A stretch of 43,102 nucleotides of DNA, taken from sequence record OR352935.1; one strand, 5' to 3'. The stretch's first letter is position 1. Every line of letters begins with the position of its first letter. Positions 9,867 to 16,955 of the stretch are shown here, piece after piece. The position numbers were made by a program, and so were the translations under genes. This stretch comes from Escherichia phage AV104. Below the pieces are notes generated by a model. That model had not been told where the DNA came from and ran no database searches. It was given only the letters and a program-made list of their open reading frames with translations.

Positions 9867-10279
9867 TGGGCTACTTTGAGGACTTAACCAAAGCGTTTGA
9901 CGTGCCGCTGGTAGCCTTTGGAACCACAAACGGCATCAAGGTTGCGCTTGAAAATATCGACGCGCCGACGTCAACAGATACGCCGTATCTGGCAAGTTAC
10001 ATGTTACTTGCGGACACCGAGCAGGCGGATTTGTTCTTCACGGAACAACGCTCTGGTATTTATCAGGTTGACATTAACTACGCATCGGTGAAAGGTAGCG
10101 CGCCAATCAATAAAATGGCAGACTTACTTAACACGGCGTTTAAAGCAGGTAAGTCATTTTCACGTAACGACATCTGCGCCGAGGTTCAATCGGTTAGCCT
10201 GGGGCCGCTGATTGTAGAAAACGGATGGGCCAAACGGCCATTGTCAATTAACTTTATCGCATTCACCAAGAGGCTGTGA
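9863..10279 (+). CDS. tail terminator protein (putative)
   Basis: 138 aa, ATGA coupling; directly upstream of the putative major tail protein. Confidence 0.4.
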   Translation: MMGYFEDLTKAFDVPLVAFGTTNGIKVALENIDAPTSTDTPYLASYMLLADTEQADLFFTEQRSGIYQVDINYASVKGSAPINKMADLLNTAFKAGKSFSRNDICAEVQSVSLGPLIVENGWAKRPLSINFIAFTKRL

Positions 10280-10281
10280 AT

Positions 10282-11448
10282 ATGGCTACAACTCCTTTTA
10301 AGGGCGCGAATACCGCGCAATTCTATGTGGCGGAAGTGACCCCGGGCGTAACACCAAGTAACCCGGTCTGGTCGCCGTTGCGAAACACCGGCGGCGTTCC
10401 TGCAGTAACCCGCGACGCGCTGACCTCCAACGAACTGGACGGCAGCCGTGAAACCACATCCATCCGCACCGGTAACAAGCAGGTTAGTGGTGAGTACGCA
10501 ATCGAACTTAGCTCCCGTAGCCAGGATGATTTCCTTGCGGGTGCTATGACTTCTACGTGGCAGGATGGGGTAGAGATTACGGGCGCCGAAATTACGGTCG
10601 CCCCAGCAGGTAAAACATTCACCCGCGCTGCCGGTAGCTTCATTACTGACGGTGTAGAAGTTGGCGACCTGATTGCGTTCACCGACTTAACCGGCGACAA
10701 CGCAAAACCGTTTATTGTGACCGCGGTCGATGCGCTCGTAGTAACTGGCGCAGGTATTCAGCACACGCTGACGGCAGAGACTGTAACCACCGACGCTAAA
10801 ACTGGCGACAAGCTGGAAACCGGTAACGCGTGTAAGACGTTCTCCATCCTGACGTGGTTCAAAGGACAGTGCGGGAACCCTGACGCGTACATGTTGACCA
10901 AAGGCGTGGAAATCTCCGGTTTCACCATTGAACAGGCCGTAAACGCGATGGTGACAGGCAGCTTCCCGTTCATCGGTCTAAGTCAGGAAATTCTTTCCGG
11001 CCCGCCGACAGGTTCCGACTTCTCTCAGGTCACATTCACTGACGAGCCGTTCTCGTCTGTAGATGTGTCGGTGTTCGATGGGTCCACGCCGTTGCGTTGC
11101 GATACTCTGACCATCACCAACGACAACGGTGCTTCCGCGCAGTTCGAACTCGGCAACAGTAGCGTTGCGTTCGTGGAACGTGGTCGCGCGGCGAATACCT
11201 TCTCCATCTCCGGCAAGCTGTACGACATGGCGATGATTCAGAAGTTTATCAACGAGCAGCAGGTAGAGATTAACTCTATTCTGGCGGGGGTAAACGGGGT
11301 TATGTCTTTCAGCCTGAAACGCGCAGAGCTTACGGCGGTTACGCCAGAAATATCAGGCCCAGAATCAATTACGCAAAGCATAGAAGGACAGTCCACAGGC
11401 AATCAATATCAATCTTCTATTGTTATCCAGCGCATCACCTACGCATAA
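10282..11448 (+). CDS. major tail protein (putative)
   Basis: about 388 aa Thr/Gly/Val-rich protein after the neck genes, followed by a strong terminator; ATG at 10282 with AAGAGG RBS. Confidence 0.55.
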   Translation: MATTPFKGANTAQFYVAEVTPGVTPSNPVWSPLRNTGGVPAVTRDALTSNELDGSRETTSIRTGNKQVSGEYAIELSSRSQDDFLAGAMTSTWQDGVEITGAEITVAPAGKTFTRAAGSFITDGVEVGDLIAFTDLTGDNAKPFIVTAVDALVVTGAGIQHTLTAETVTTDAKTGDKLETGNACKTFSILTWFKGQCGNPDAYMLTKGVEISGFTIEQAVNAMVTGSFPFIGLSQEILSGPPTGSDFSQVTFTDEPFSSVDVSVFDGSTPLRCDTLTITNDNGASAQFELGNSSVAFVERGRAANTFSISGKLYDMAMIQKFINEQQVEINSILAGVNGVMSFSLKRAELTAVTPEISGPESITQSIEGQSTGNQYQSSIVIQRITYA

Positions 11449-11452
11449 AACT

Positions 11453-11478
11453 AAGGCCCCTTTCGGGGCCTTTTTCTT
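11453..11478. terminator. bidirectional rho-independent terminator
   Basis: AAGGCCCC-TTTC-GGGGCCTT flanked by A-tract upstream and T-tract downstream. Confidence 0.65.
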
Positions 11479-11708
11479 TACTCATCAATGTTACTCCTGT
11501 ATTCCCGTAACTTCTCCAGACTTTCAATTGCTTCCGCCAAGTCGGTTCCGGTGTCCTTGTGCCCGCGAAGGCCCATACACAATAATTTCTTCAATGCGTG
11601 CTGTAACGCCGGGTCGCGGATGTCGAAAGCGCGGAGCACATCATAAACGTCTACAGTCATAGTGCTGCCGTGGATGTTTGTCATTGTGCGGTTGTATTTT
11701 GAAGTCAT
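11478..11708 (-). CDS. hypothetical protein
   Basis: 76 aa ORF, last gene of the reverse-strand island. Confidence 0.45.
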   Translation of the reverse strand: MTSKYNRTMTNIHGSTMTVDVYDVLRAFDIRDPALQHALKKLLCMGLRGHKDTGTDLAEAIESLEKLREYRSNIDE

Positions 11709-11721
11709 AAATCACTTTCCC

Positions 11722-12192
11722 CTACTCATGGTTTTCATGGAAACCGTATTTACTCTCCGCGGCTTTACGCGCGGCAACCGCTAGACCAAAATCGTCGTAA
11801 AGCCCTAAATGTACTTGTTTGTAGTTAACTTTTATAAACGCGCGCCACTTACCCGCGGCTTTGTGGAAACTTACACCTGTAGCCCCGGATTTATTTATCT
11901 TTCGCATAGTTTTATTTTTACTGTTCCCTGTATTGTCGGTGGCGCGTAGATTTTCTATTCTATTGTCTAGCCTGTTATGGTTTATGTGGTCTATTTGAGT
12001 TTTCCTGTCTAAGTTGCATTTATTATAAAGACACCATGCTATGCGGTGGACATACACTGTTTTACCACCCATACCGCAGCACAGATAGCCTCTTACACCA
12101 ACCGTACCAACCTCAGCGCCAGTAGATATCCTGGTCACCTGCCCCGTCTCAGGGCAGTATTTAAATTGTTTTGAAACATCAATATATCTCAT
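11722..12192 (-). CDS. HNH homing endonuclease with AP2 DNA-binding domain
   Basis: 156 aa; HNH_3-type motif (VHRIAW ... IDHINHNRLDNRIENLR) followed by AP2-like GVSFHK..GKWRAFI...LGLYDD. Confidence 0.7.
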   Translation of the reverse strand: MRYIDVSKQFKYCPETGQVTRISTGAEVGTVGVRGYLCCGMGGKTVYVHRIAWCLYNKCNLDRKTQIDHINHNRLDNRIENLRATDNTGNSKNKTMRKINKSGATGVSFHKAAGKWRAFIKVNYKQVHLGLYDDFGLAVAARKAAESKYGFHENHE

Positions 12193-13319
12193 CTTAGCAT
12201 CTCCGGTGAGATTGAAAGCCTACCTACTTCCCCGAACTCTGAACTATAGGTTATGACGTTAGCGGACCTCTTAGACATCCACCCGCCGCGAGAAGCATAT
12301 GCATCTTTCGCCGCGAGAGTGCGATGCTGCTCCACTACCATATTCCTACTTTCTACAATCTTTTGGTGGTGGAGATGCCCGACATGCGCATAACTGTACT
12401 CGCTTTCGCCAAATGCTTTTCTGAACTTAGCGATCATAATGGGTTCTACCACCTCAAACCGGCATTTATGTCCGTGTGTAAAGAACAGCGTCGTTTTGCC
12501 GTGTTGCACCATCTTATAAACATCCGGCGACGTATCGACGAACACACGAGGCTCGTTGTCGTACAGCGTACTGAACATCTCAGCCAACCAAATCATTCCG
12601 CTTTCGTCGTGGTTCCCTTGCACGATAAGCAAGCGAACATTTTTGTGTTTAACCAGCGCCATATCAACAACACGGCGGACCATACGAATCATGTAGCGTA
12701 CCAGTTTCTGGTAGCGAGTGTCTGCGTCCAACACATGGCGAGACTCAGGGGTGACGGCATCCAGACTATCGAAGTGCGCAAAATCCCCCAGAAGGTTAAT
12801 AACTCCTGTTCCCGCATCTGGCGCTTTCTGAAACGCCGCGTCGAACCAACGAGAGAACAGATCTTCCGCAATCTTCATATCCCAGTCGTCGCCGCTCTCG
12901 TCGGCCCAGGCCAGCATACCGAGATGAAAATCAGATACCGTGTAAAGATTGAGTAGCTTGTCGTCACGTTTGGCGCGAACGGCTTTAACAGGAGCAACGG
13001 GGGTAATCTCCGACTTCATCCCTTCGATTACGGCTTTCATCAACTCTACCTGACGTTCGGCGTCGGTATCAGTCTTAACCCATTGCAACTTAGTGTTGCC
13101 GAACTCGTCCACTAGTGACGATGTTCCTTTAATCTTGTAGCCGTCAGGAACAAGGTGGCTGACGTCGCGCCCGTGGCCTACGCCTTTCTTAGCCAGCTTC
13201 GCTTTACGGATGCGAATAACGCGGTCTGAGATGCCATATTTACGGGCGATGTCGATATTCTTCATACCGGCGTTCAATTCTTCCTGCAACTGTTCGTCGG
13301 TTATTTTCTTCCGGGCCAT
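12189..13319 (-). CDS. calcineurin-like metallophosphoesterase with N-terminal HTH
   Basis: 376 aa; phosphoesterase motifs D-x-H (SDFHLG), GD..D (GDFAHFD), GNHD, THGH, GHLHH; N-terminal HTH-like segment (IDIARKYGISDRVIRIRK). Confidence 0.7.
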   Translation of the reverse strand: MARKKITDEQLQEELNAGMKNIDIARKYGISDRVIRIRKAKLAKKGVGHGRDVSHLVPDGYKIKGTSSLVDEFGNTKLQWVKTDTDAERQVELMKAVIEGMKSEITPVAPVKAVRAKRDDKLLNLYTVSDFHLGMLAWADESGDDWDMKIAEDLFSRWFDAAFQKAPDAGTGVINLLGDFAHFDSLDAVTPESRHVLDADTRYQKLVRYMIRMVRRVVDMALVKHKNVRLLIVQGNHDESGMIWLAEMFSTLYDNEPRVFVDTSPDVYKMVQHGKTTLFFTHGHKCRFEVVEPIMIAKFRKAFGESEYSYAHVGHLHHQKIVESRNMVVEQHRTLAAKDAYASRGGWMSKRSANVITYSSEFGEVGRLSISPEMLR

Positions 13320-13383
13320 GCTTATTCCTCGTGCTTAGGATTTGTCCTATTTAACCACAGTGGATTCCTTTAAATAAAGGCAA

Positions 13384-13710
13384 CTATTTACTTTCTGCGC
13401 CTATCGCCCACCCTGTCATTACCATTTGCAGACGGGTGGCTGTCAGTAGGCTATAGAAAGCATCTCCGTTTTTCTCTACCGAACGTATCACTGTGTAGGT
13501 TACGGCCTGCGGGGGTAGGCCCGATTTACCAACCTCCACGGCGGCCTCACACTCGCGAACTGTAGAGTCCTTGAACGCCTTTACAATAGTAGGGTCGGCT
13601 TTCTCGAGCACACCAGAAGTCATAAGAACAGATTCACTAAATACCTGTTCGCACGGAGACCCAAAAGTAGCAAAAGACATAAAACCCAGAGCTAGTACTA
13701 ATTTACGCAT
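13384..13710 (-). CDS. small secreted protein (signal peptide)
   Basis: 108 aa; N-terminal MRKLVLALGFMSFATFG hydrophobic signal sequence; first gene of the reverse-strand island. Confidence 0.5.
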   Translation of the reverse strand: MRKLVLALGFMSFATFGSPCEQVFSESVLMTSGVLEKADPTIVKAFKDSTVRECEAAVEVGKSGLPPQAVTYTVIRSVEKNGDAFYSLLTATRLQMVMTGWAIGAESK

Positions 13711-13735
13711 AATTATTTCCTCAGTAAGTTACATG

Positions 13736-13768
13736 TGAATAGTACCCTATTATATTGGGGTGTGCAAG
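13736..13768 (-). promoter_or_regulatory. promoter of reverse island (TTGCAC-17-TACTAT containing TATAATAGGG motif)
   Basis: minus-strand reads CTTGCACACCCCAATATAATAGGGTACTATTCA, almost identical to the promoters at 36190 and 37632. Confidence 0.45.
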
Positions 13769-13874
13769 TAGTGTGCTAGAATAAGTTTGCGCCTAGTGTC
13801 GCACACGAAAAGCGGGTGGTTCCCGCCTGGCGCATTAACCATAACCAGTAACCTCTTAACCAAAGGACTAAAGA

Positions 13875-14291
13875 ATGAAACTTTCTGATTTCTATTTTGC
13901 CGACCGTCACGCCGCCGGTACTAAAATGCCTATCCTTCTGCCGAGCGGAAAAGACTCTGGCGAATGGCTGCAGGTCATTGGCCCCGATTGCGATGCGGGC
14001 GTTCGAGCAGGACGCGCCTACACAACGGCAATTCGACGCCTTACGGAAGAACTCGCGCCATTAGATAAAGAGTGCGAGGCATTGAATAACTGGGCGCGAT
14101 ATAACGATGAGAAGGGCTGGCGTGTGATGGACCTGAACAAGCAGCTTGCCGTGGAAATCGTCACCGGTTGGTCATTCGATGAGCCGTTCAGCAAAGAGGC
14201 GCTGGCTAACCTGTTCGACCAGTACAGTGGGCTGGCGGAGGCTGTAGTTAAGCACCACACCGATAGCCGCGAGAAACTCTCGGAAAAGTAA
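13875..14291 (+). CDS. tail assembly chaperone (gpG-like)
   Basis: 138 aa ORF directly upstream of the tape measure gene; -1 frame stays open past its stop. Confidence 0.55.
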   Translation: MKLSDFYFADRHAAGTKMPILLPSGKDSGEWLQVIGPDCDAGVRAGRAYTTAIRRLTEELAPLDKECEALNNWARYNDEKGWRVMDLNKQLAVEIVTGWSFDEPFSKEALANLFDQYSGLAEAVVKHHTDSREKLSEK

Positions 14292-14653
14292 AAGCGCTGT
14301 ATGAATTTGCGCAATGGTGCTTTGTCGACCGCCACAAACGTAAGCAATTCGACGACATCGCGGCGGGCCACCAGGCGGCTTTGATTGCAATGGGCGTGAT
14401 TAAAGAACCGCAGATGAAAGAAGCGACGGGGCCGGAATGCCCCGTTTCTCTTATCGACGTGTTCGAGAAATACCGTGCCATTAAATTCCTACAGCGCGAA
14501 ACAGATGATACTATCGTTATAATCCCGCGCGATGCGCTCAAATGGCAAGATTTGGTAGCGTTTCGTGATGTCGCCGGTTACGGCATAAGTTTGTTCGAAG
14601 CCGAGGTTATCATGGGCTTAGACGGAATATTTGAGGGCAGAGAAGATGGCTGA
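14282..14653 (+). CDS. tail assembly chaperone frameshift extension (gpT-like segment)
   Basis: -1 frame open from 14267 to 14653, overlapping the G stop; putative slip site GAA-AAG-TAA at 14283-14291. Confidence 0.4.
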   Translation, partial: GKVKALYEFAQWCFVDRHKRKQFDDIAAGHQAALIAMGVIKEPQMKEATGPECPVSLIDVFEKYRAIKFLQRETDDTIVIIPRDALKWQDLVAFRDVAGYGISLFEAEVIMGLDGIFEGREDG

Positions 14654-16955
14654 TACGGCTTCCCTAATTGCCAGAGTAAAAACAGAAGGCGCTGATGTAG
14701 CCGCTAAACAGCTTGACGCTATGGCGGCATCCGCAGACCGTGCGGACACATCCGTAAACAAACTAACGCCGGATGTTAATAAAGTAAACTCCGCTACGTC
14801 TAAAGCGGCTTCTGACGGTTTCGCTAAATTCCGTAACGCCGCCGGGCAGGTAGGCTTCCAGGTGCAGGACATGGTCGTCCAGTTGCAGTCCGGCACGTCT
14901 GCATTCGTAGCAATCGGGCAACAAGGCTCTCAGCTTGCGGGTGCTTTCGGCCCTGGTGGCGCGGTGCTTGGGGCTGTAATTGCTCTCGCATCAGCAATTG
15001 GCGGTGTCCTGTATAAATCACTAACGGAGGCCGAAGGTAGCTCAAAAGACCTCGAGGCCGCGCAAAAGCAGTTAAAAGACACCTTCCAACAAACGGCATC
15101 CGGCTCTCTCGAACTGACAGACGGCCTTATCCAGCTTACCCAAATAAGCCGAGAAGCGGCGGAGACTCAACTTGCTTTGGCTAAGGCTAACGCGGACCTT
15201 ATCGCACAGCAAACAGCTAAAGCTGTTCGTGAGGACGCAGAATCATGGGAGACATGGAAGGCATCCACAGCATCAGCTATCAGCCAGTACGATGCATTGG
15301 TCTCTAAAGGTGCGGATGTAGGCGACACGTTAGAAAAACTCGGTGGCACTTACGAGGGTAACATCGTAGGCGTCAACATGCTGGCGCAGAATATCGCAGA
15401 GCTTAGCAGTAAGTTTGGGGTTAACCGTGACCAGGCGCTGGAGATGATAGCGGCGCAGAGTGCGTTTAACAAAGAGCCAACCGCCGAGAATGCCCGTCGC
15501 ATCGCCGATGTGTTTACCGACTGGCTCGGTAATACAAAACAGTTGAACCCGGAACTTATCCGCCTGACCGACAATGCCAACAAGAACGCCACGGCACTGG
15601 AGAACGCGGAGAAGTCCGCAAACGCGGCGGCGGAGGCCCAAAAGAATCTTGGTCGTAACGTCAACTCAACAACGCAGAGATTCCAGGAACAGAACGAAGC
15701 TATCGTCAAAAACCAGCAAATCGCTATCTTAAGTGACCGCGAGCGTATCCGTGCGCAAGCTGAACTGGATAAGCAGGCGTTCGCTAAACGTGAAGCTGTC
15801 ACCAAAGAACAGATCGCCGCGTATAATGCTGCGCGTGACACGGAAGCACAACAAGACATCGCTCGCATCGACGCTACCGAAAAAGCGAAGGCCGACCGCG
15901 AGGCCAAATCGAACGAGAAACGGCTGGCGGCACAAGCCAAACGCGAAGAAACGGCGGCTGAACGACAGAAAAAAGCGGCGGAAGATTTCCTGGCTACTGT
16001 CGACCGCACAACCGGAGATGAGATTTCGCGCATTACCGCTGCGGAAGAGCAGAAACTGGCAAAACTGGAAGAGTTTAACAGAGCTGGGACTATAAGCCAG
16101 CAGCAATACGAAAACGCCAGGACGCAGATTATGCTCTCGGCCGAACAGGCCCGCCAGGAAGAACTCGCCAAGCGAGAGAAAGAACGACAGGAGAAGAACC
16201 AGAAAGGCGAAGACTTCATGGCTCAGATTATGGGCCAAAACGCCGCTGAGCTTGAGCTTCTGGAGATTCAGGAGCAACAAAAACTGGACGTTGCTGACAG
16301 GTATCGCGAACAGAATCTGATTAACGAAGAACAGTACCAGGCCGCGGTTAATGCTATAAATGACCAGTACGCGTTAAAACGTGCTAACGCAACGGGTAAC
16401 GCTTTTGGCATGATGGCGGATAATATTAAATCGTCGCTTGGCGAAGCGTCTACTGCGTACAAAGCTTTCGCTATTGCGCAGGCCACTATTGCCACATACA
16501 CCTCCGCTATAGAGGCTTATAAATCTGCATCGGCTATCCCTATTGTTGGATGGGTGCTCGGGCCTGTAGCCGCCGCCGCCGCCGTAGCCGCGGGGCTCGC
16601 AAACATTGGCAAAATTCGTTCGGCCCGTGAGCAGGGCGGTAACTTAGCTGCAGGTCAGTTATCTACTATCGCGGAACGTAACAAGCCAGAAGTTATTATG
16701 CCTGCAGGGGCGTCACGCGTCCGTACCGCAGAACAGATGCGCCAGATTATGGGCGAGAACGGCAACAAGTCAGGCGGTGACAGCGTTACAATCGTCAACA
16801 ACACCACCGGACGTGTTGATTCCGCCGTTACAGAGCGTGACGACGAAGGGCGGTTACGTGTTATCATCAGCGAAACAGTATCGGCGGCGTTACAAGACAG
16901 CAACAGTGCAATCTCTAAGTCACGCCGTGCTACACGAAACCAGCCGGGGTATTAA
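14646..16955 (+). CDS. tail tape measure protein
   Basis: about 770 aa, Ala/Gln/Glu/Lys-rich coiled-coil with hydrophobic segments near the C-terminus; downstream of G/T chaperones; ATG at 14646 with GAGG RBS. Confidence 0.8.
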   Translation: MADTASLIARVKTEGADVAAKQLDAMAASADRADTSVNKLTPDVNKVNSATSKAASDGFAKFRNAAGQVGFQVQDMVVQLQSGTSAFVAIGQQGSQLAGAFGPGGAVLGAVIALASAIGGVLYKSLTEAEGSSKDLEAAQKQLKDTFQQTASGSLELTDGLIQLTQISREAAETQLALAKANADLIAQQTAKAVREDAESWETWKASTASAISQYDALVSKGADVGDTLEKLGGTYEGNIVGVNMLAQNIAELSSKFGVNRDQALEMIAAQSAFNKEPTAENARRIADVFTDWLGNTKQLNPELIRLTDNANKNATALENAEKSANAAAEAQKNLGRNVNSTTQRFQEQNEAIVKNQQIAILSDRERIRAQAELDKQAFAKREAVTKEQIAAYNAARDTEAQQDIARIDATEKAKADREAKSNEKRLAAQAKREETAAERQKKAAEDFLATVDRTTGDEISRITAAEEQKLAKLEEFNRAGTISQQQYENARTQIMLSAEQARQEELAKREKERQEKNQKGEDFMAQIMGQNAAELELLEIQEQQKLDVADRYREQNLINEEQYQAAVNAINDQYALKRANATGNAFGMMADNIKSSLGEASTAYKAFAIAQATIATYTSAIEAYKSASAIPIVGWVLGPVAAAAAVAAGLANIGKIRSAREQGGNLAAGQLSTIAERNKPEVIMPAGASRVRTAEQMRQIMGENGNKSGGDSVTIVNNTTGRVDSAVTERDDEGRLRVIISETVSAALQDSNSAISKSRRATRNQPGY

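Follow-up and report, generated by a model that had tools for sequence, protein, structure and literature searches.

The four genes that run against the structural operon in the tail region of Escherichia phage AV104 can be read as the contents of a resident reverse-strand cargo slot of Kagunavirus and Jerseyvirus phages, assembled in three layers with separate histories; we give this explanation as a whole a probability of roughly 0.55. The layout of the island is ordinary for this phage group, and it is not a new counter-defence cargo. The window, by which we mean the entire 43,102-nt stretch that was analysed (sequence record OR352935.1), belongs to the genus Kagunavirus (Guernseyvirinae), and the four minus-strand genes at 11478-13710 lie between its tail-tube gene and its tail chaperones. 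The features discussed below are the following.

10276..11448, plus strand: tail tube protein gene, left flank of the slot (Pfam Phage_tube_2, PF18906, E 1e-35)
11453..11472, both strands: two-way intrinsic-terminator-like hairpin, AAGGCCCC-TTTC-GGGGCCTT (8 pairs, 6 of them GC)
11478..11708, minus strand: p76, 76 aa (ORF confirmed, phrog_2452)
11709..12192, minus strand: putative homing-endonuclease insertion of ~484 bp (absent in Bas75)
11722-12192, minus strand: HNH ORF, 156 aa (Pfam HNH_3, phrog_99)
12189..13319, minus strand: HTH-metallophosphoesterase (MPE), 376 aa (motifs and predicted model)
12193..12450, minus strand: co-conversion tract at the 3' end of the MPE gene (window compared with Salmonella phage S100)
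13384..13710, minus strand: p108, 108 aa, first gene of the island (ORF confirmed)
13740..13768, minus strand: candidate sigma-70 promoter of the island, TTGCAC (13768-13763)-N17-TACTAT (13745-13740) (conservation in EnJE6)
13786..13850, plus strand: int-alpA-like structured RNA motif (Rfam RF02996)
13875..14653, plus strand: tail assembly chaperone genes, right flank of the slot (Pfam PF08748, PF23812)

An earlier note on this DNA had described four genes transcribed against the structural operon, and all four ORFs were recovered between the tube and chaperone genes identified by Pfam. Each ORF matches a phage protein family in PHROGs, and the same genes are annotated in relatives such as K1H, where the island is already present. 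The GC content of the island (0.48-0.49) is slightly lower than that of its flanks (0.52-0.53), and the sign of the GC skew is reversed within it, as expected from minus-strand coding. The tube gene is held by 494 phage records at an identity of at least 60%, and among the relatives sampled through this gene the tube/chaperone junction was either empty or occupied by small membrane proteins, an Imm-family gene alone, a p108-like (lipo)protein alone, a Rha-Ant gene, or the full module. The junction is a hot spot for reverse-strand cargo, in agreement with the moron-like position that had been proposed. The variability of the island against its relatives is nevertheless uneven: the first slot is exchangeable and the HNH gene is sporadic, whereas the MPE is present in all 32 Kagunavirus loci, which were sampled through the tube gene without reference to the MPE.

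The tube gene and the island share the terminator hairpin, which was detected on both strands with a good T-run on the plus strand (TTTTCTTT) and a weaker one on the minus strand (AGTTTTAT); a bidirectional terminator had been placed here (11453-11478). Over the whole region, six terminator-like sites were found compared to 4.0 +/- 2.1 expected, which is no enrichment. The promoter proposed at 13736-13768 fared less evenly. The candidate matches the consensus at only 7 of 12 positions and was missed by the promoter scans, but both hexamers are kept in the Salmonella Jerseyvirus EnJE6 (TTGCAT-N17-TATTAT) despite the divergence of the spacer, which makes it plausible that this element drives the island. 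Another candidate from the consensus scan, TTCACA-N16-AATAAT (13739-13712), was rejected, as its -10 element falls after the ribosome-binding site and ahead of the start codon, and a perfect TATAAT at ~13752 is not conserved in EnJE6.

An int-alpA-like RNA motif is located just upstream of the chaperone gene, outside the coding cargo of the island. Its full-length match to RF02996 scores 35.8 bits (E 5.9e-5), which equals the gathering score exactly and went unreported in the whole-window gathering run. The motif is supported by covariation on 15 distinct sequences, with 80.4% of cells paired compared to 33-52% when the partners are slid, 11 pairs that change on both sides, and a covariation score of 0.403 compared to 0.146 in shuffles (reached by 0 of 500).

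The MPE comprises an N-terminal HTH (residues 8-44, nt ~13298-13188), a beta-hairpin plus helix (residues 61-102), and the metallophosphoesterase core (residues 119-376, nt ~12965-12192). The HTH forms a three-helix unit in the predicted model; the GerE match of the protein is sub-threshold, and its homologues carry precomputed HTH_8, HTH_30, and Sigma70_r4_2 matches. The core was inspected for the motifs with which binuclear metallophosphoesterases bind two metals (DxH / GDxx(D/H) / GNH(D/E) / H / GHxH), and all of them are intact (D130xH132, G178D179xxH182, G235N236H237, H282, and G314H315xH317). No change in the five motifs is seen among 11 sequences with identities as low as 22% or in a 123-sequence alignment, and the invariance of the catalytic residues across very distant homologues argues for a working enzyme, whose two-metal active site is complete as predicted from these motifs. 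The Pfam scores are 25.8 bits for Metallophos_2 (cut-off 27) and 19.5 for Metallophos (cut-off 21.5), and single-sequence and profile searches of the PDB gave no significant match. The protein has the four-layer alpha/beta sandwich fold of the binuclear metallophosphoesterase (calcineurin-like) superfamily, and the folds nearest to it are those of the DNA nucleases PolD DP1, SbcD, and Mre11. Motifs, model, and homologues together sustain the initial description of a 376-aa calcineurin-like phosphoesterase with an N-terminal HTH.

The MPE is nonetheless distinct from these nucleases. Mre11/SbcD share a similar nuclease core with it, and PolD DP1 has a similar PDE-domain fold, but the identity to them is just 11-17%. 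The C-terminal capping domain of Mre11/SbcD is absent from the model and their cognate coiled-coil ATPase, Rad50/SbcC, has no counterpart with the MPE, which carries the N-terminal HTH and the beta-hairpin in place of this cap and partners. As for the catalytic subunit of PolD, DP2, the phage annotation lists a single 'DNA polymerase' gene and no DP2-like gene. A further likeness is to the MPE of Pseudomonas putida (PDB 6nvo), which is a stand-alone metallophosphoesterase nuclease. It is a Mn-dependent ssDNA endonuclease whose gene lies beside those for a helicase and a ligase in a repair cluster, and one nr annotator has named P0107, a close homologue, after it. Targeted literature searches found no experimental work on the HTH-MPE enzyme, and the term 'phosphoesterase' is absent from the BASEL paper on Kagunavirus phages, which was covered by a keyword search.

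Full-length homologues of the MPE, HTH included, were found in ~2,037 phage records from several families, with groups that include T1-like, Dhillonvirus, Klebsiella, Vibrio, and N4-like phages; the homologue from a Campylobacter phage keeps the enzyme core and lacks the HTH. At all loci that were selected through the MPE and have tube and chaperone flanks, the MPE occupies this slot. The record counts in Salmonella phages agree for the tube (359), MPE (373), and p76 (371) genes, and at loci of distant relatives with a tube identity of 66-79% no MPE is found in the slot, which was the part of these loci examined. The homologues are usually surrounded by replication and nucleotide-metabolism genes, such as those for a helicase, VRR-NUC, and Dam in Drexlerviridae; thymidylate synthase and dCMP deaminase in an N4-like phage; and a sliding clamp, PhoH, Thy1, and a helicase in marine phages. 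Kinase or ligase neighbours are seen in Erwinia phage S2, which has genes for a 5'-3' exonuclease, an endonuclease, PNK, and a ligase, and in Thermus phage Lalka8, where the neighbouring genes encode an RNA ligase and proteins resembling HAD nucleotidases and dNMP kinases. This distribution, together with its constant presence in the sampled Kagunavirus loci, contradicts the view of the phosphoesterase as a variable moron cargo.

In K1H and ~16 IMG/VR loci, the MPE gene is followed by genes for a HAD-PNKP and a P-loop protein. The MPE gene is joined to the next gene by 4-nt ATGA overlaps, and in relatives this arrangement indicates translational coupling to a polynucleotide kinase/phosphatase that is split, in some cases accompanied by a ligase. 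Genes for PNK, a ligase, or Rad50/SbcC were not found in the AV104 genome, and thus the end-repair pathway is incomplete in this phage; likewise, the fully annotated relative Bas75 has no gene for a long coiled-coil ATPase. We consider a DNA-bound end-processing nuclease more likely than a signal-degrading enzyme. The HTH would hold the MPE on DNA, and the enzyme would cut or trim nucleic-acid ends that are blocked, damaged, or hairpinned, an activity that may serve phage DNA replication, recombination, or repair. In relatives that possess a split polynucleotide kinase/3'-phosphatase and a ligase, the MPE would act upstream of both, while in AV104 its coupled partner would be p76 instead of a kinase or ligase.

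The counter-defence reading that builds on the earlier note, in which the MPE would break down an immune signal made of nucleotides (cyclic mono-, di-, or oligonucleotides) and the secreted protein would act as another host-takeover factor, finds no specific pointer in these data. The nearest folds are DNA nucleases, the coupled neighbours are PNK and ligase genes rather than anti-defence genes, nearly every homologue has a fused DNA-binding HTH, and the enzyme is fixed in the genus and placed among replication and nucleotide-metabolism genes in other families, all of which makes signal degradation distinctly improbable. The same neighbours could instead indicate RNA repair, with the MPE as a 2',3'-cyclic phosphodiesterase or 3'-phosphatase that heals tRNA or mRNA after cleavage by toxins or anticodon nucleases of the host and, in phages that have them, cooperates with PNK and ligase in the manner of Clostridium thermocellum Pnkp. 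In K1H-type Kagunaviruses and in Erwinia phage S2, the genes behind the MPE encode a HAD-PNKP phosphatase and a P-loop protein, an RNA ligase is encoded near it in Thermus phage Lalka8, and 2',3'-cyclic phosphodiesterase activity has been described for the metallophosphoesterase domain of CthPnkp (PMC2190708). The combination of MPE, HAD-PNKP, and P-loop genes in relatives, with or without a ligase, recalls the healing-and-sealing systems of T4 Pnkp and C. thermocellum Pnkp (PMC3592404, PMC2190708). It differs from those systems in that none of these partner genes occurs in the AV104 window and in that the MPE domain has nucleases, not phosphatases of the PPP type, as its nearer relatives in fold. 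The RNA-repair reading is unlikely.

Another possibility is that the MPE is a true double-strand-break nuclease of the SbcD/Mre11 type, part of the replication machinery and paired with a Rad50/SbcC-type ATPase. SbcD and Mre11 are within the top three fold matches, PHROGs and many annotators apply the label 'DNA repair exonuclease', and the motif II histidine (GDxxH182) is conserved, a feature that resembles Mre11. On the other hand, the alignment covers just 185-192 residues, all from the nuclease core, with an identity of 13-17%, the model has no separate C-terminal capping domain, the annotation of Bas75 contains no long coiled-coil ATPase, and the P-loop protein encoded next to the MPE in K1H is of the kinase type, with 184 aa, and not SbcC, so we regard this assignment as very unlikely. 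The earlier note had itself set such a conserved repair nuclease with a cognate partner against its proposal; the conservation of the enzyme and the Mre11/SbcD-like fold are indeed observed, but a Rad50/SbcC-type partner is missing from the genome. There is a weak match of residues 3-36 of the MPE to phrog_836 'late transcriptional activator' (E 9e-4) and to HTHs of the GerE/FixJ type, which would suit a protein acting mainly as a transcription regulator, e.g., one that activates late genes and whose phosphoesterase domain is a sensor or degenerate module. Such a function is hard to credit for a protein whose catalytic residues are all invariant in very distant homologues and whose Campylobacter phage homologue has the enzyme core but not the HTH.

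The end-processing nuclease that we favour is followed in AV104 by the HNH gene and p76. The 76-aa protein matches phrog_2452 (E 2.5e-36). It represents one widespread phage domain with the consensus VDVYDVLxAF..PAxQHAxKKLLCxGxRGHKD..DLxEA, which occurs in 773 phage records and 3,606 representative clusters, either standalone or at the N- or C-terminus of 70-330-aa proteins. In the Kagunavirus loci, p76 and the HAD-PNKP and P-loop gene pair are mutually exclusive. Searches with p76 gave no Pfam or PDB match, and searches of Pfam, PHROGs, and PDB with the proteins bearing its domain returned nothing informative; a possible likeness to DUF3310/SaV-like proteins found no confirmation in Pfam. Because its match is confined to the C-terminal third of two PHROG profiles, p76 was considered as a C-terminal remnant of the K1H 'ATP-binding protein', but this was rejected: BLASTP found no similarity between them, the domain is widespread and autonomous, and the 'ATPase' member of the PHROG lacks a P-loop.

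The HNH gene has a separate history. The protein matches HNH_3 (PF13392) with 38.7 bits (cut-off 24.8, E 7.9e-10) and phrog_99 with E 7e-55, whereas its AP2 match (PF00847) of 18.4 bits falls below the cut-off of 33.3 (E 0.0027). The first codon of the ORF and the stop codon of the MPE gene overlap (ATGA). In Bas75 the 484-bp insert is cleanly absent, and there the MPE stop and the p76 start overlap. At a nucleotide identity of at least 95%, the HNH gene was found in just 38 records, spread over Escherichia and Salmonella phages. Between the window and Salmonella phage S100, nucleotide identity reaches 96.4% for the HNH gene and 94.5% for the adjacent 200 nt of the MPE gene, compared to 77.9% for the remaining MPE gene and 79.7% for p76. 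The MPE gene of Vibrio phage K147 is followed by a homologous HNH gene, and MPE genes in marine contigs are followed by other HNH genes. The gene shares with free-standing HNH_3-AP2 homing endonucleases of phages the HNH_3 domain, a sporadic distribution, a precise intergenic insertion, an identity above that of its flanks, and co-conversion; it differs in that the AP2 domain is below the Pfam cut-off. By these features, the HNH gene behaves as a genuine homing element, and of the HNH-AP2 homing endonuclease announced earlier the AP2 part scores below the cut-off. The free-standing HNH_3(-AP2) gene sits exactly at the junction of the MPE and p76 genes and has recently passed from one to the other of the Escherichia and Salmonella phage groups, taking along ~250 bp of the MPE 3' end; its cleavage site may lie in or near this end.

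The first slot of the island holds either p108 or a protein of the T4 Imm superinfection-immunity family (PF14373), with Imm in most relatives. As read from the sequence, p108 has a conserved N-terminus with MRK, a 13-residue hydrophobic core, and an SFA/TFG cleavage-like site, as well as the invariant cysteines C20 and C54, and a distant p108-like protein bears a lipobox. The signal peptide assigned earlier is in line with these features and stays a prediction; p108 would be putatively Sec-exported to the periplasm. Its predicted model, of moderate confidence, is an all-alpha orphan, and p108 looks like a soluble helical protein of the periplasm, unlike the T4 Imm family, whose members are small membrane proteins. 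The two occupy the same promoter-proximal slot and are both envelope-targeted (by prediction for p108), but p108 has neither sequence nor fold similarity to Imm: no relationship between them was seen with Pfam, NCBIfam, or tblastn, and p108 has no homology to any known exclusion protein. Since an Imm-family gene sits in the same slot of most relatives, superinfection exclusion, also suggested earlier for the secreted protein, is a fair guess: p108 probably blocks rival phages, the support for which is positional, and would act at the envelope.

The slot-1 gene is linked to the chaperone allele, as all 10 p108 loci carry the window-type allele and all 23 Imm loci the other type, while in the same sample the slot downstream of the MPE assorts freely relative to the chaperone and tape-measure N-terminal alleles. 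Two further readings are possible, which we hold rather doubtful. Slot 1 could be a superinfection-exclusion specificity cassette, in which p108 and Imm are interchangeable exclusion genes, each tied to its own allele of the chaperone and the tape-measure N-terminus; if this were true, p108 would represent a new periplasmic exclusion family that acts on the cognate tape-measure type. The HTH-MPE, in turn, could be the nuclease arm of a modular pathway of MPE, split PNK, and ligase that repairs nucleic-acid breaks and counters host nucleases, with p76 as an alternative partner.

The island is a standard and already annotated feature of Kagunavirus and Jerseyvirus phages, and in this respect its description changes little. 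The HTH-MPE is among the more widespread uncharacterised phage enzymes (~2,000 sequenced phages), and as genes for polynucleotide kinase/phosphatase and ligase recur in linkage with it, the definition of its substrate would annotate many genomes. The HNH gene is evidence that genes have recently been exchanged between phages of Escherichia and Salmonella. The alternation of p108 with Imm and its linkage to tape-measure alleles point to a candidate new superinfection-exclusion protein, open to direct testing, in phages that serve therapy and engineering.

The earlier note described four reverse-strand genes within the tail block, and this arrangement was confirmed: each ORF falls into a phage protein family, with the tail tube gene (10276-11448, +) on one side and the tail assembly chaperones (13875-14653, +) on the other. 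The 4.8-kb stretch around the island matched 413 phage records, the best being Escherichia phage 590B, a Guernseyvirinae member of the genus Kagunavirus (93.6% identity). Annotations of 590B, Bas75, and K1H already list the same genes, four or five on the reverse strand; in Bas75, a fully annotated relative, the replication genes lie ~11 kb from the island and share its strand. The components are of known kinds and nothing in the island is categorically new; the families of the HTH-metallophosphoesterase (MPE), the 76-aa protein (p76), and the putatively secreted 108-aa protein (p108) are uncharacterized.

Features of the island and its borders
11453-11472, both strands: hairpin called as a terminator
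11478-11708, -: p76
11722-12192, -: HNH homing gene
12189-13319, -: MPE, 376 aa
13320-13383: 64-bp p108/MPE spacer
13384-13710, -: p108
13768-13740, -: candidate promoter TTGCAC-N17-TACTAT
13786-13850, +: int-alpA-like RNA element (Rfam RF02996), conserved three-helix element

The bidirectional terminator proposed at one end of the island is supported by calls on both strands. The promoter claimed at the other end is a plausible sequence-based candidate: both hexamers are retained in Salmonella phage EnJE6, where the spacer between them has diverged, but the match to the consensus is weak and two scans missed it. In the p108/MPE spacer, an AT-rich inverted repeat (CCTTTATTTAAAGG) and a TGnTTAAAT-like element were read by eye; the spacer may act as an internal promoter, so that MPE would still be expressed after exchange of the first gene.

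To ask whether the island is accessory, IMG/VR contigs were surveyed twice, via the MPE gene (80 loci) and via the tube gene (60 loci), the latter avoiding MPE-selection bias. All MPE-selected loci with both tube and chaperone flanks carry the MPE gene in the slot between them, as do 32/32 tube-selected Kagunavirus loci covering the slot (tube ≥87% identical). More distant tube-selected relatives (tube 66-79%) have no MPE gene there; their junction is empty or holds two small membrane ORFs, an Imm homolog only, a p108-like protein with small ORFs (one version with a VIGC lipobox), or a Rha-Ant gene. Given these differing contents, the tube/chaperone junction is a cargo hot spot; only Kagunavirus and Jerseyvirus have the MPE module there as a fixture. 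In these two genera, slot 1, next to the promoter, holds an Imm_superinfect gene (PF14373) in most loci and p108 in a minority, and is occasionally empty; slot 2, after the MPE gene, holds p76 or a HAD-PNKP and P-loop pair, never both together. All four combinations of slots 1 and 2 were seen. The HNH genes of the module are of at least three kinds, placed before or after p76, and a Rha-Ant gene lies at its far end in some phages. The view of the island as variable accessory cargo holds for the junction and both slots but not for the MPE gene itself.

Two MPE alleles (~85-95% vs ~55-60% identity to the window) were observed in otherwise near-identical backbones (L071/L102, L076-L080, and L009, which is EnJE6); in L071, the tube is 97%, p76 99%, and MPE only 60% identical to the window. 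The MPE gene is swapped between backbones yet always kept.

The HNH gene is absent in Bas75, where the MPE stop overlaps the p76 start, and the window carries a 484-bp insert exactly at this overlap. At ≥95% identity the HNH gene was found in only 38 records, from Escherichia and Salmonella phages alike. Compared with Salmonella phage S100, the window is 96.4% identical in HNH and 94.5% in the 200 nt of MPE next to it, vs 77.9% over the rest of MPE and 79.7% in p76, a pattern that reads as classic homing with one-sided co-conversion. In Vibrio phage K147 the MPE gene is followed by a homologous HNH (36% identity, E 3e-18), and in marine contigs by other HNH genes; the conserved MPE gene therefore appears to have served repeatedly as a homing target. 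As for p76, the possibility of a gene remnant was rejected, as it is a single highly conserved, widespread domain of ~65 residues. The domain was detected in 773 phage records and in 3,606 representative clusters, both as a standalone protein and attached to either end of proteins that are otherwise unknown; one fusion, in an Aeromonas phage, is with a BRCT domain. It has no relative in Pfam or PDB.

The MPE is an intact, HTH-fused enzyme of nuclease-like fold; its gene is fixed across the genus, with translation coupled to that of the following gene. The Pfam matches of the protein are just below threshold, and the metal-binding motifs D130xH132, GD179xxH182, GNH237, H282, and GH315xH317 are all kept in an alignment of 11 homologs down to 22% identity. 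The AlphaFold model (pLDDT 82.6, built on 123 sequences) begins with a three-helix HTH (residues 8-44), continues through a beta-hairpin and a helix (61-102), and ends in the enzyme core (119-376). Neither sequence nor profile searches gave significant matches in PDB; a viral structure library places MPE within a large phage clan labeled 'DNA polymerase II small subunit' or 'calcineurin-like' that has no characterized member. Full-length homologs occur in 2,037 phage records, and their neighbors vary by lineage.

Genes near the MPE gene in other phages
Dhillonvirus: lysis genes upstream, terminase downstream
T1-like phage herni: helicase, VRR-NUC, Dam
N4-like roseophage: dCMP deaminase, thymidylate synthase
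Marine phages: PhoH, sliding clamp, Thy1, helicase, methylase
Erwinia phage S2: 5'-3' exonuclease, endonuclease, then HAD-PNKP, P-loop protein, DNA ligase
Thermus phage Lalka8: HAD nucleotidase-like protein, dNMP-kinase-like protein, RNA ligase
K1H: HAD-PNKP phosphatase (PF25109, E 7e-20) and P-loop protein, stop/start codons overlapping

We infer that MPE would bind DNA and process nucleic-acid ends for phage DNA metabolism, and that it may feed PNK and ligase in phages having both; the window itself contains no PNK, ligase, or Imm genes. Degradation of a nucleotide signal, as suggested in the earlier note, is less well supported than such end processing, as are RNA end healing and a role as a regulator. 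The same applies to membership in a strict SbcCD-type complex, against which stands the Bas75 annotation with no Rad50/SbcC-like gene.

Just outside the island, between its promoter and the chaperone start, the int-alpA-like element matched RF02996 over its full length at 35.8 bits, equal to the gathering score, and was not reported by the whole-window gathering run. Diverse relatives have it upstream of the chaperone gene, even at loci lacking the island; in L144/L145 it is flanked immediately by the tube gene on one side and the chaperone gene on the other. Covariation covers the whole outer stem (80% of cells paired vs 33-52% in slid controls), the covariation score was reached by 0/500 shuffles, and G-U pairs favor the + strand. 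The element may be a leader at the restart of the late tail operon, and a connection with the phage's AlpA/Xis-like regulator would be hypothetical. Bas75_0025 (L002 4567-4659), a 30-aa 'hypothetical protein' corresponding to window ~13750-13842 (-), appears to overlap this motif, as placed by coordinate offset from aligned regions rather than by direct mapping, and is probably a spurious gene call.

p108 is an orphan limited to Guernseyvirinae (98 phage records; 22 clusters among 5.8 billion proteins), with a conserved predicted signal peptide and two invariant cysteines. Its model is helical, of moderate confidence, and gave no meaningful match in a structural search; the sole functional clue is its position, where it replaces an Imm-family gene. 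A distant p108-like protein in locus L134 (8098-8466, -; 122 aa, 37% identity) has the lipobox AVIGC, and the family may therefore be lipid-anchored in some phages; instead of the MPE gene, four more small reverse-strand ORFs come after it.

Across the sampled Kagunavirus loci (window 13384-15530, loci L097-L156), the slot-1 gene type is in complete linkage with the allele carried by both chaperone ORFs and by the tape-measure N-terminus (first 300 residues). Slot 2, after the MPE gene, assorts independently. Among these loci, which are not phylogenetically independent, 10/10 with p108 have the window-type allele (98-100% identity in these regions) and 23/23 with Imm have the other (chaperones 46-56% identical to the window, tape-measure N-terminus unalignable). 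Simple physical linkage across the 164-bp spacer may account for this. Tape-measure proteins can serve as targets for injection-blocking proteins, and the linkage would also fit a cassette pairing an exclusion gene with its cognate tape measure.
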